A stretch of DNA of 32,000 nt from Dickeya dadantii NCPPB 898. GTDB lineage: Bacteria; Pseudomonadota; Gammaproteobacteria; Enterobacterales; Enterobacteriaceae. Positions 8,811-14,749 of this stretch are shown in pieces (position 1 is the first letter of the stretch; every line of letters starts with the position of its first letter). The DNA is taken from assembly GCF_000406145.1 (NCBI RefSeq), contig NZ_CM001976.1:567260-599259 (forward strand). The letters are read 5' to 3'. Below the pieces are notes generated by a model. The model searched no databases. It was not told the origin of the DNA and saw only the letters and a list, made by a program, of their open reading frames with translations. Both the position numbers and the translations under genes were made by a program.

Positions 8811-9137
<327 letters not shown>

Positions 9138-9160: not shown

Positions 9161-10834
<1,674 letters not shown>

Positions 10835-11498
10835 TGCGACGAGAGTCGTGTAGGTAGCTAGCCGAGCGGACTACTTCCGTAGTGAACGTATGCGACTGTA
10901 TACGTTCACTATTTCCCGCTAAATTAGCATGAATGTGATAAATGTCCGATGTTCCGGACTTTAAATTCATCCGGAACATTGGCCCTTCGCAAAGCGAAGG
11001 CTAATCTCTGGATGCGACTTTAAAGTCAGTATCCGTTCTAATCTGTTTAAATATTTTATCTTTTTAAATTGTTTGATTTTCAAACAAATACTTAAACTGT
11101 TTAAAACTATTTAACGTCAAGAAAGGTGCACGCCGAAGCAAGCCGCTATCGATTGGTTTGTGATGCAGCGGGGCTAACATCGCCTTTATCTAAATTATGC
11201 GCACTAGCACCTACCGGTGTGAAGCTGTGCTGATGATTGTCTGACTGTATCTATGTTTGGTGCAGAGACAGACCTGTTATGCAACTAACAGTAGCCTAGG
11301 AGCAGCGCGTCACCAGCAATGGTGGGGTGTGAGAGCGCTCTGACAACGTACTCCCTGTTTTTCGGGTGTTGTTTCACCGTGAGGTGAGCAATGGATTTCG
11401 CCAGTAGTAGGTGAATGAGAGGCAAGGCTGGATCATAGGGTTAACGTTAAGTGAACTGCCATAAGCACCGTCAGCCGCAAGCAGCAAAAGCTACTGAT

Positions 11499-11542
11499 AT
11501 GCTGCGACCAAAAGGTACAAGGTCGGCTATTCCTTTTACATC
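11499..11542 (+). other. EBS2 (11499-11505, AUGCUGC) and EBS1 (11537-11542, UACAUC) of intron domain I
   Basis: Pairing to the contiguous exon 13-mer 10821-10833 gives 7 bp (one G.U) and 6 bp. The two sites are about 30 nt apart, as expected for the EBS loops. Confidence 0.7.
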
Positions 11543-11944
11543 TGGGAATACGTTGCCATTAGATCTTCGGTGTATAGGCAGAACCTCAGTGATTCGTGTC
11601 ATTAGTATGGAGCTCGGTAAGCCCGTATTTTTGCCCTCGTGGCAGGTGAGTCGTAAGACGAGCTGTTGAAAATGCGGGTAAAGGAGGTTGGAGAAAGCGA
11701 ATGCCATTCTGTAATGGAATGGATAGGGGGTTAAAGGTTCCTCCACCGGAAACGGGGCAGACTTCCGACTGGTCTTTAATTGCGTGCAGTAATGTAAAGC
11801 AATCTAACGTGACAGAAAGAGATTAAGGGCGGTAGTCAACGCCTCTATTTTTACCCCTGCGGGAGCCGATGACACTCCCGCAGGGGGCTGTCTATCTGTT
11901 ACCACACCGGGCTTTCTGAACAAAGCACAGTGGAGGGTAGCAAG

Positions 11945-13648
11945 ATGAGTACGTTAGTTAGCGTATCTGCGTCCTCCGGCAAGGCGGAGAACTGGCACCG
12001 TATCAATTGGAGTCAGGTTCACCGCCATGTCAGAGGGCTACAGATACGAATCGCAAAGGCAACGGAGCAGAAGCGCTGGCGCAGAGTGAAAGCTCTGCAA
12101 AGGATGCTGATGCGCTCGTTTGCAGCCAAGGCACTGGCTGTCAGGCGGGTTACCGAAAATCGAGGCAAAAAGACAGCCGGAGTGGATCGCCAGTTGTGGA
12201 ACACTCCCGGAAGTAAGTGGCAGGCGATAGGTCAGCTAAAACGGACAGGTTATAAGCCGTCTCCGTTAAGGAGTGTTTACATACCCAAGAGCAACGGCAA
12301 ACGCCGTCCCCTGGGCATACCGACGATGAAAGACAGAGCGATGCAGGCGTTATACCTGTTAGCACTTGACCCCGTCTCGGAAACTAGGGCAGATCGCAAC
12401 AGTTATGGCTTCCGTCCGGCGCGTTCAGCGGCAGATGCGATTGAGCAATGTTTTGTTAATCTCAGTCGTAAAAGCTCTGCTGAATGGGTACTGGAAGGCG
12501 ATATAAAAGAGTGTGTTGACAATATCAGCCATGACTGGTTACTTGCCAACATTCCGTTGGATAAACAGGTACTCGGGAAATGGCTTAAAGCGGGATTCAT
12601 GGAGTCCGGTCGGTTATACCCAACGGAGGCTGGTACACCACAGGGAGGCATTATTTCTCCCGTACTGGCTAATATGGCACTGGATGGACTGGAAGCGGTG
12701 TTAGAAACCCATTTTGGGAAGAAAAACACCAAAGCCAGTTATAAAACCAAGACCAATTTTGTGCGTTATGCAGATGATTTCATCATTACGGGTATCTCGA
12801 TAGAGTTGCTTGTAAATGAAGTCAAACCCCTTGTTGAGGCCTTTATGGCGGAACGAGGGCTGCAATTATCACCCGAAAAAACTGTGATAACGCATATTTC
12901 CGATGGGTTTGATTTTCTGGGGCAGAATGTGCGCAAGTACCACGGCAAAATGCTGATAAAGCCTGCTGCCAAGGGACTGCGTAATCATCTTCAGAAAGTC
13001 CGGCAAATAGTGAAACGTAATGCGGCGTCAAAACAGGGTGACCTGATAAGACAACTTAATCCGGTACTACGGGGTTGGGCTAATTATCATCGTCACATTG
13101 TGGCCAAAGAAACGTTTAGCTATATCGACTATCGCGTCTGGAAATTACTCTGGCGCTGGTCATGCCGACGGCACGGGAATCGCAACAAATACTGGGTGAA
13201 GCAGAGATATTTTCACTCTGTCGGGAGCGATAACTGGGTATTTCAGAGTGTCGATGCGGAAAACGGCCTGCAAAGGTTGGTGTCTTGCAAAGATATCCCG
13301 ATTAAACGTCACATTAAAATCAGGTCTGAGGCTAATCCATACGATCCAGTTGACGAGTTGTACTTCGAGCAGCGGCAAGTTAAGCGCTGGAAAGAAGGTA
13401 AAATGCAGCGAGGAAAACTGAGATTAATTTGGGAGCGACAGGGCCATCGATGTCCGATCTGCCACCAGATATTCAGAGATAATGATGATTGGGATGTCCA
13501 TCACATTATCAGACGAGTAGATGGAGGTGGAGATGAGGCCGATAATTTAATGATGCTGCATCCTAACTGCCACAGATTAATTCATCATGGTGGTAAGGGT
13601 GAGTTGGGGGGGCCAATCCCCCTCCTCGGACTTACCGGATTAGCATAA
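11945..13648 (+). CDS. Group II intron-encoded protein: reverse transcriptase / maturase / HNH endonuclease
   Basis: RT motifs are [30 protein letters not shown] and [12 protein letters not shown]. The maturase X motif is [14 protein letters not shown]. The C-terminal HNH region is CPICHQ...[33 protein letters not shown]. The ATG at 11945 is preceded by GGAGGG at 7 nt, whereas the track ORF starts 5 codons earlier at a GTG. Confidence 0.95.
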
Positions 13649-14059
13649 AGACGATTTTCATCGCCAGTATGATAACCACGGGGTCGATTTCGACTTTTAA
13701 CGTGATAGTCATAGGTGCTCCTTAGGTTGGTGGGTAAAGTAAGAAAATAAAAACGGAAAACCGTTTTATTTTTCAGTTCGTTAGCATGTGTTCAAAAGTG
13801 AGACTTTTTAGTCGAACCTTTAAATCACAAACGCTAGGGGAACTAAGTGCTAGGCAGATATGGCCTGATAACACTACTTTTTCCAACCGCACATGAGAGC
13901 GTCGAAACTGGAGGGATTTTAAATTAACTGATGCTGATGTCAATCCATATAATGGTTTGATTACATGATGATTTTATCTACTTTAAGTGAAGTTATTGCT
14001 TTCATGTTTTTTTACGATGAAAGTAATCTGAGTAGATGACTAGCTATCCGGAGGTAATA

Positions 14060-14302
14060 ATGGGGTTCGTATACGGAAAAGACTATACCGTTTATGATCA
14101 TAGCGGCGATTTACTTGGAACTATCATCGGTGATGAGTTTATCCGTTCAAAAGCTAATAAATTGTTGTGCAGGATAGATGGTGAAGAGATCTATTCTCTT
14201 GATATACCTTGTAAATTACTTGGTTTTATGGATGGTTTACACGGTAAGTCGATTGATGGCTCGATCCTATTCACTCTTGAAAGCGAATCTTCATCTAAAT
14301 AG
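14060..14302 (+). CDS. Hypothetical 80-aa protein with internal ~17-aa repeats, carried inside intron domain IV
   Basis: The start context is GGAGG-taata-ATG. Three clear repeats have an LLGxIxG-type core (DLLGTIIGDE / KLLCRIDGEE / KLLGFMDGLH), plus a weaker fourth (GKSIDGSILF). The ORF sits in an AT-rich insert. No function can be assigned from the sequence alone. Confidence 0.55.
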   Translation: MGFVYGKDYTVYDHSGDLLGTIIGDEFIRSKANKLLCRIDGEEIYSLDIPCKLLGFMDGLHGKSIDGSILFTLESESSSK

Positions 14303-14349
14303 TAATTAACGTTGCCGGCCCAAACAGTAGTGCGGGCTTATAAAGGCTT

Positions 14350-14425
14350 GAGCCGTATGCGGGGAAACTTGCATGTACGGTTCTTAGGGGGGCGGCGGCG
14401 CAGTAATGCGCTGCTGCTACCCGAC
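14350..14425 (+). ncRNA. Group II intron domains V and VI (catalytic core and branch site)
   Basis: Domain V is GAGCCGUAUGCGGGGAAACUUGCAUGUACGGUUC, with the AGC triad, a GAAA loop and a 2-nt bulge. Domain VI has an 11-bp upper stem capped by GUAA, a bulged A at 14419 and 3 G-C pairs below it. The intron ends 6 nt after the branch A. Confidence 0.92.
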
Positions 14426-14476
14426 ATCTGCCGCGCGACCACAGCGATATCCTCGTTGTGGTGCCTGTCGCACTGT

Positions 14477-14511
14477 AAAAACTACCCGGCTTCGGCCGGG
14501 TAGTTTTTTTT
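14477..14511 (+). terminator. Rho-independent terminator of the groESL(-intron) transcription unit
   Basis: aaaaa-CTACCCGGC-ttcg-GCCGGGTAG-tttttttt gives a 9-bp GC-rich stem, a UUCG loop and a run of 8 T. It lies 51 nt downstream of the 3' splice site. The A-run upstream makes it potentially bidirectional. Confidence 0.88.
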
Positions 14512-14749
14512 AAGGACCGCAGGAAGCATGGTTAACCGCAAGAACGTACACCATGTGTGATAAGGCTTGTCTATCCACTCGTTTGCAACAGGGTGTGAGC
14601 CTCGCTGATAGGTTGTGTAAAAATCGCTCAAGTCGTTAACACGCGGTTCGGAACCTGTTACCAGCGTACGATTCTTCGCTACAATGAGCATCTGCGCTAC
14701 AATAAGCGCGTTTTATTTTATTTATTAAACACCGGGTGGAATGGGATAC

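Follow-up and report, generated by a model that had tools for sequence, protein, structure and literature searches.

A probable full-length group II intron of the groEL stop-codon lineage, with a cassette in its domain IV loop, in Dickeya dadantii

What separates groEL from its terminator in Dickeya dadantii NCPPB 898? In the 32,000-nt stretch of DNA analysed here (the window; contig NZ_CM001976.1, positions 567,260 to 599,259 of the forward strand), groES (8844–9137) is followed by groEL (9188–10834 including the stop, plus strand), an open reading frame (ORF) with a Cpn60 Pfam match. The groESL intrinsic terminator, a hairpin with a T-run on the plus strand, is found only at about 14482–14511, with ubiC downstream of it (from 14741). 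Between the groEL stop and this terminator lies a plus-strand element of 3592 nt (10834–14425). From its sequence, we regard it as very probably a full-length groEL-lineage member of the bacterial subgroup IIB1 group II introns.

Where exactly does the element begin and end? groEL closes with ATG ATG TAG, and G10834, the last base of this stop, is also nucleotide 1 of the intron, which opens GTGCGAC. Both ends fit the group II consensus (GUGYG and AY), with GUGCG at 10834–10838 and ...GAC at 14423–14425 (3′ end ...CCCGAC). The 5′ exon is the groEL coding sequence, ending with the TA of its stop (9188–10833, plus strand), and the 3′ exon (14426–14512, plus strand), identical in intron-less relatives, starts with A14426, which restores TAA once the intron is spliced. 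We found 10 public contigs that encode an identical 548-aa GroEL. All lack the intron and carry ubiC about 320 nt after groEL, and in each the empty site reads ...GGCATGATGTA|ATCTGCCGCG (core ...GATGTA|ATCTGCC; longer context ...GGCGGCATGATGTA|ATCTGCCGCG...), which is 10833 joined to 14426. An initial annotation, made from the letters of the window, had predicted the empty site ...GGCATGATGTAATCTGCC..., and this string occurs verbatim in all 10 contigs. Because the bases flanking each junction differ, the insertion point is unambiguous and cannot be shifted. The presence of the intron is polymorphic among close Dickeya relatives.

Is the RNA a group II ribozyme? We scanned the whole window against Rfam with its curated gathering scores and found that Group-II-D1D4-7 (RF02012) matches 11273–11422 over the full length of the model (97.4 bits, gathering score 34), and that Intron_gpII (RF00029, domains V and VI) matches 14348–14425 (60.6 bits, gathering score 40). 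The first match, together with the alignment of the exon-binding sites (EBS), places ribozyme domains I–III and the start of domain IV at 11215–11929 (plus strand). Domain IV ends in a conserved 3′ part which, together with the linker leading to domain V, occupies 14307–14349 (plus strand); homology with all groEL introns resumes here. Domain V (14350–14383, plus strand, 34 nt) has its AGC triad at 14351–14353, a GAAA loop and a 2-nt bulge, and domain VI (14387–14425, plus strand) has a GUAA loop and a candidate branch point at A14419. When 14345–14425 was folded alone (minimum free energy), both domains formed and A14419 was unpaired, 7 nt from the 3′ end (z = −6.1). At the other end, GUGCG is followed by a small hairpin, GCGAC GAGA GUCGU (10834–10849, plus strand; pairs 3–16 in the consensus fold), which non-groEL relatives share. 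The initial annotation had called a IIB-type intron between the second and third stop bases, with TAG before and TAA after splicing, from a GTGCG whose first G is the third base of the groEL TAG, domain V at 14350–14383, and the GUAA loop and unpaired A14419 at −7 in domain VI. Each of these landmarks was recovered: domain V falls within the RF00029 match, the fold agrees on domain VI, the covariance models proposed as a check score both domains V/VI and D1–D4 above threshold, and Rfam, the domains of the encoded protein, the empty site and the fold all support the call as a whole.

The exon-binding sequences read at the outset, AUGCUGC and UACAUC complementary to 10821–10833, are likewise present. 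The candidate EBS2, ATGCTGC at 11499–11505, forms seven pairs, one of them G·U, with intron-binding site 2 (IBS2) GCGGCAT (10821–10827), and EBS1, TACATC at 11537–11542, forms six Watson–Crick pairs with IBS1 GATGTA (10828–10833). Across 31 aligned groEL introns, the EBS1 hexamer is found in one and the same hairpin loop, and in 29 of them it reads UACAUC. One intron (L007) has UGCAUC, with pairing kept via wobbles; another (L025) combines CACAUC with an exon ending in ...GAUGUG, a compensatory change, and the remaining introns with G-ending exons keep a U·G wobble. For EBS2, the 7-bp register is kept in the sub-clade of the window and about 5 of the 7 pairs in distant members.

The intron encodes a protein (intron-encoded protein, IEP) of 567 aa (11945–13648, plus strand), preceded by the Shine-Dalgarno (SD) sequence GGAGGG (11932–11937) and composed of RVT_N, RVT_1 with its YADD motif, maturase X (GIIM) and HNH. 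The ORF is uninterrupted over its 567 codons, with the YADD and HNH motifs present, and scores 369.6 bits against TIGR04416, the NCBIfam equivalog for group II reverse transcriptase (RT)/maturase proteins (cutoff 300). The reading of an intact RT, maturase X and HNH ORF is in agreement with all of these matches. RefSeq WP_050570173.1, from Dickeya dadantii, is the same protein as the IEP, whose 90%-identity cluster also includes proteins from Citrobacter, Klebsiella, Salmonella, Kluyvera and Phytobacter.

Is the element tied to this site? We collected relatives of the IEP by a scan of one genome per species, and the figures here refer to the best 80 loci. Among the 26 loci with IEPs at least 62% identical, 24 have the end of groEL 1.0–1.25 kb upstream and the contigs of the other two end short of it; among the 54 relatives at 60% identity or less, none adjoins groEL. 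The junctions in the groEL introns are TA|GTGCGAC or, in a few, TG|ATGCGAC or TA|ATGCGAC. Insertion between stop positions 2 and 3 of groEL is shared by 26 related loci. The same site is occupied in many genera, the hosts including Tolumonas, Zobellella, Phaseolibacter, Shewanella, Alteromonas, Oceanobacter, Photobacterium and Vibrio. Close relatives, aligning at 86% identity over 78% of the query, are present in 2 of 5426 complete Escherichia coli genomes; at least 3 more genomes match domains V/VI only, and one of these that was checked, strain A37, has a more distant groEL intron.

How does the Dickeya intron relate to known systems? The arrangement had initially been taken as undescribed in enterics, which does not hold. 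Gomes, Toffano-Nioche, Gautheret and Costa (2025) described the same groEL stop-codon arrangement (TAA to TAG) and reported that groEL introns are widespread among gammaproteobacteria (PMC12584367). Their EcKTE56.groEL, a 3228-nt intron of E. coli KTE56, reaches a retrohoming efficiency of about 100% at groEL and is expressed from where it lies in the chromosome (PMC12584367), and the same paper cites Michel et al. 2007 for a groEL intron of Citrobacter rodentium. The first members of the family were found in Azotobacter vinelandii (Ferat 2003; Adamidi 2003) and the next in Citrobacter rodentium (Michel 2007), consistent with the Azotobacter precedent named in the initial annotation. For this known family, the Dickeya copy adds a new host.

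EcKTE56.groEL resembles the window intron in its position at TA|A of the groEL stop, its 5′ GUGCGAC and its RT plus HNH protein. It differs in length (3228 versus 3592 nt), in the downstream gene (yjeI versus ubiC) and in its host, and it is known from retrohoming experiments (PMC12584367), whereas the Dickeya dadantii intron is known here from sequence. The groEL intron of E. coli LST200A is also 3228 nt long, with an IEP 90.8% identical to that of the window. Judged by length only, the E. coli locus L081 (3228 nt) would be EcKTE56.groEL; it aligns with the window at about 75% in subdomain Ia, 85% in the ribozyme and 91% in the IEP, and has a cassette in the same domain IV slot. Avi.groEL, the founding member, lies between stop positions 2 and 3, has a 5′-subterminal insertion and self-splices in vitro according to PMC12584367. 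It shares the site and the insertion with the window intron but comes from a distant host (Pseudomonadales), is not among the best 80 loci and is compared here by description only. EcI5 and other non-groEL IIB1/CL1 introns (for example L027–L080) have the same ribozyme subclass, RT/X/HNH protein (52–60% IEP identity), 5′ hairpin and domains V/VI; unlike the window intron, they are not at groEL, have no domain IV cassette and, in most of those examined, lack Ia. With this copy, a soft-rot pathogen joins a family that has a published model system in E. coli, in keeping with the published wide spread among gammaproteobacteria. Its practical value is that of a clean, fully delimited natural example with empty sites known within the species.

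Initially, 10834–14425 had been read as a ribozyme plus an IEP. Both are present, but two further segments had been overlooked: a subdomain Ia of about 365 nt and a domain IV cassette of about 720 nt. Subdomain Ia spans approximately 10850–11214 (plus strand), bounds that come from a consensus fold, from length relative to relatives and from composition (GC about 35%). The fold, computed from 7 close homologues about 75–77% identical in this segment, closes Ia with a 12-bp helix (GUAGGU-AGCUAGC / GCUAGCACCUAC) and predicts 147 pairs; in 17 of these, changes on both sides preserve the pairing. Bounds derived from global pairwise alignment with Ia-less relatives were rejected, as the aligned blocks were scattered and partly spurious. 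The distance from the 5′ end of the intron to the IEP start is 1111 nt in the window versus about 630–647 nt in most non-groEL relatives examined. Consistent with this, an insertion of 300–700 nt in the 5′-subterminal region, at the base of domain I, is a trait of all clade members (PMC12584367). Within Ia, three AT-rich direct repeats of 17 nt (ATCTGTTTAAATATTTT and variants) lie at 11041–11111; the segment that holds them is poorly conserved across genera, and the repeats could be a binding site for a host factor.

A side case is L033, a non-groEL intron from an uncultured gammaproteobacterium with an IEP 58% identical to that of the window. It begins GTGCGACGTGAGTCGCTTGGGGTAGCTAGCC, 859 nt upstream of its IEP, apparently with an Ia-like insertion of lesser length, and may be a member of the wider start/stop-codon clade residing at another gene.

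What fills the domain IV loop? Homology to the groEL introns of E. coli and Phaseolibacter ends at 13572–13585, just past HNH, and resumes at 14307–14311, about 40 nt before domain V; those two introns hold other cassettes between the same boundaries. The break in homology and a GC content of about 38% delimit a foreign cargo cassette of about 720 nt (13586–14306). No terminal direct or inverted repeats were found around it and, for this reason, it is unlike the insertion of an insertion sequence (IS) or of a miniature inverted-repeat transposable element (MITE). Neither the cassette DNA nor its 80-aa protein matched anything in plasmid or phage collections. The final 20 or so codons of the IEP fall within the cassette, after a run of seven G residues (13606–13612). 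This run has six G in Serratia and is shorter still in Morganella, shifting the frame and length of the tail, so that the IEPs of window, Serratia and Morganella are 567, 565 and 553 aa long.

The cargo ORF orf80 (14060–14302, plus strand, 80 aa; SD GGAGG at 14050–14054) is identical to WP_038910187.1 of Dickeya dadantii. We found 33 representatives of its family (E < 0.001) among 1.84 billion proteins. Against the Pfam beta-flower families the family stays below threshold, with 9 of 26 members matching at E < 0.01. The AlphaFold2 (AF2) model, of high confidence, is all-beta with eight strands (predicted local distance difference test, pLDDT, 91.9), and a Foldseek search of the PDB returned no significant fold match. 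Serratia, Morganella and Salmonella enterica subsp. salamae have homologues with at least 86% identity in the same slot within the groEL intron, and one 65% identical in other Enterobacterales has that same position. Pairwise ratios of non-synonymous to synonymous substitution rates (dN/dS) are 0.27–0.52, from few substitutions. Two more distant homologues directly follow HNH-ending ORFs on short contigs. Others, at 39–41% identity (L108, 1253–1477; L113 and L114, 4001–4222), sit in a BREX locus, with brxC on one side and a pglX-like methyltransferase on the other, and at the integrase end of a prophage beside the lysis genes.

On the minus strand, a putative hydrophobic ORF of 26 codons (13632–13712), with the SD AAGGAG 5 nt upstream, overlaps the IEP stop region. 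ORF and SD are kept in the Serratia, Morganella and Salmonella copies; the amino-acid changes are hydrophobic-conservative save one D-to-G in L102, and the nucleotide changes are mostly non-synonymous. No Pfam or NCBIfam family, type I toxins included, matched the 26-aa peptide. The ORF may encode a small toxin-like peptide or may have arisen by chance. That it belongs to a type I toxin-antitoxin pair is speculation only. Consensus scans further gave an AT-rich hairpin flanked by T-runs on both strands (13750–13767), terminator-like in both directions, which is conserved in Serratia and Morganella and diverged in Salmonella. They also gave overlapping, divergent sigma-70-like promoter matches on both strands (13916–13953): TTGACA-16-TAAAAT on the minus strand (11/12) and TTAACT-18-TATAAT on the plus strand (10/12), upstream of the 80-aa ORF. 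The promoter-like hexamers are largely conserved across 4 copies, and the number of such matches in the cassette region is not above that in shuffles, which makes them leads only. The cassette may be transcribed independently of groESL, from both strands.

Is such a slot peculiar to this intron? From the IEP stop to domain V we measured 199–822 nt in 23 of the 27 groEL introns with domain V mapped, versus −3 to 65 nt (median 7) in all 49 non-groEL relatives. By these measurements, the domain IV cassette slot is a property of the groEL lineage. The cassettes (L001–L026, L081, L082 and the window) are low in GC and carry differing small ORFs, and cargo families recur on backbones whose IEPs are 30–40% diverged. 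A DUF2188 protein, also matching the PADLOC defence candidate PDC-S16 (E = 2e-38), is the cargo in E. coli (L081), Vibrio penaeicida (L016) and Reinekea (L023), so that the E. coli cassette differs from that of the window, with its 80-aa beta-flower-like ORF and antisense small ORF. DUF1508 cargo occurs in L014 and, by eye, in L023; lambda ea8.5-like cargo in L012 and, by similarity, in L017 and L026; the 80-aa family in the window and L016; and a membrane-anchored family of about 141 aa (160-codon ORFs) in L004 and L013. Several small membrane proteins are found at other groEL-intron loci.

Does the intron need its cargo? In the E. coli intron's delta-ORF construct, 127 nt of ORF sequence remained and 1867 nt were deleted, and the construct was fully mobile with the RT supplied in trans (PMC12584367). 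Because 1867 nt exceeds the 1659-nt RT gene, the construct must also have dropped the DUF2188 cassette, and because it was fully mobile, the cargo is dispensable for mobility. In engineered targetrons, retrohoming carries along foreign genes inserted into the domain IV loop (reviewed in PMC3898094). The window cassette has the same domain IV position, but targetrons are laboratory constructs, whereas the groEL-intron cassettes occur naturally, are diverse and are restricted to a single intron lineage. PMC12584367 is silent on extra ORFs, and literature searches that did not extend to Michel 2007 and Ferat 2003 returned no natural cargo or DUF2188 in bacterial group II introns. The natural domain IV cassettes are the one angle of this work that may be new.

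How did intron and cassette reach their present distribution? The two occur together at 86–99% identity in Serratia, Morganella and other Enterobacterales, always within groEL, a level of identity across genera that points to recent horizontal spread of the unit. Between the window and Serratia (L093), identity is 98.6% in the cassette, 92% in the IEP, 87% in D1–D3, 77.5% in Ia and 88% in groEL. Since segment identities differ in this way, the element is a mosaic, which suggests recombination or cassette exchange between intron variants.

How would the intron work? Our proposal follows by homology from the E. coli KTE56 intron. Lying between the groEL stop codon and the groESL terminator, with no promoter of its own upstream, the element would be transcribed as the tail of the heat-shock groESL mRNA. 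GroEL translation would end at UAG in the unspliced and at UAA in the spliced message, giving the same protein. That the site carries no fitness cost, as the initial annotation supposed, is conjecture; the insertion places 3.6 kb, with promoter-like and terminator-like sites inside it, ahead of the groESL terminator. The IEP, translated from the intron, would help the ribozyme to excise as a lariat branched at A14419, and splicing would be expected to leave the ligated-exon junction ATGATGTA|ATCTGCCGCG. The lariat–IEP particle could then reverse-splice into an intron-less groEL at TA|A, with EBS1, EBS2 and EBS3 recognising GCGGCAU-GAUGUA|A. The HNH domain would nick the bottom strand, and the RT would copy the intron by target-primed reverse transcription. 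By analogy with the E. coli member, the window copy most likely splices and retrohomes.

Could the locus hold no intron at all, with chance motifs or an unrelated retroelement carrying a retron- or DRT-type RT downstream of groEL? The RT domain does give weak secondary NCBIfam matches to retron and Drt models, yet these stay far below their cutoffs, whereas maturase X is matched and TIGR04416 exceeds its own. The EBS/IBS motifs alone are not above chance: a wobble-tolerant EBS2...EBS1 pattern was found 4 times in the window versus 2.4 expected. As the motif pair is not rarer than chance, the exon-binding complementarity is not independent statistical evidence, and its support comes from position and homology. 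Two independent covariance-model matches well above curated thresholds and an absence in relatives that is exact to the nucleotide tell against this explanation; the Rfam matches and the exact empty sites refute it, and we assign it a vanishingly small probability. The motif count nevertheless weighs against a full-length, working intron, as do several further points. EBS2 is plausible and its exact register unproven, without covariation support in distant members, and neither EBS3 nor EBS2a was located in the window intron (IBS3 is A14426 and position −14 is G10820). The IEP tail beyond the HNH motif is non-ancestral. The terminator-like hairpin and promoter-like sites could disturb full-length transcription. 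Finally, Salmonella enterica subsp. salamae (L101–L103) has a decayed copy of the variant, in which Ia differs and the IEP has lost about 860 nt; it keeps orf80, the antisense ORF and domains V/VI intact. A real groEL intron that has become a dead or crippled relic would fit the last three of these points; it would be tolerated since it leaves GroEL unchanged, and its splicing or mobility would suffer from the cassette or from the replaced IEP tail after its length-variable G run. We consider such a relic unlikely: the IEP is uninterrupted, all ribozyme landmarks and exon pairings are intact, the intron-plus-cassette unit sits in the groEL of several genera, and the E. coli intron of the same architecture, with a different cassette, retrohomes at about 100% (PMC12584367).

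Granted a full-length groEL-lineage intron, is its cassette more than a passenger? Most likely, it is a passenger gene module riding along in a loop that tolerates inserts. There is nonetheless close to an even chance that it is an accessory module under selection, made up of a small gene, phage-type or defence-related, and an antisense small ORF or RNA, which is exchanged between groEL introns and exploits groESL transcription. The slot of at least 199 nt in 23/27 groEL introns versus at most 65 nt in 49/49 others, the recurrence of cargo families across diverged IEPs, and a cassette at 98.6% between Dickeya and Serratia versus 77–92% for the rest of the intron all speak for selection, as do the intact orf80 in the decayed Salmonella copy, its dN/dS values and its distant homologues at a prophage end and between brxC and pglX. 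Set against this, no cargo family has a known function, the dN/dS values derive from few substitutions, the promoter matches are not enriched over shuffles and the antisense ORF has changed mostly non-synonymously. The E. coli delta-ORF intron, by arithmetic without its cassette, is mobile and does not need the cargo, and an earlier description in Michel 2007 or Ferat 2003 is possible. More tentatively still, groEL introns at large, in contrast to their near IIB1 relatives, may be natural gene vehicles, whose domain IV slot carries and exchanges small phage-type or defence-associated genes, among them those for DUF2188/PDC-S16, DUF1508, lambda ea8.5-like, beta-flower-like and small membrane proteins, which retrohoming at the universally conserved groEL stop spreads across genera, with the cargo perhaps expressed from the groESL heat-shock transcript or from its own promoters, and the window cassette also encoding an antisense small hydrophobic peptide or RNA. 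If functional, such cassettes would be a precedent from nature for the delivery of cargo by group II introns, the principle behind targetrons, and would add a route not listed before for the transfer of small accessory genes between bacterial genera into an operon that is essential and highly expressed.

A few minor observations concern relatives of the intron and the rest of the window. In Zobellella iuensis (L002, 3950–9598), two introns follow groEL in tandem (...CUACCCGAC|AUGCGAC..., second domain V at 9515–9598), a natural case of the tandem integration that Gomes et al. saw in their experiments (PMC12584367). The Tolumonas groEL introns L001 and L003 start with GCGCG, not GUGCG, which is unusual for the 5′ end of such an intron. 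In the window, the only further Rfam match is a tRNA-Phe (GAA) on the minus strand (1649–1724), and the remaining gene content is ordinary: dsbD, cutA, dcuA, aspA, fxsA, groESL, ubiCA, plsB, dgkA and lexA.

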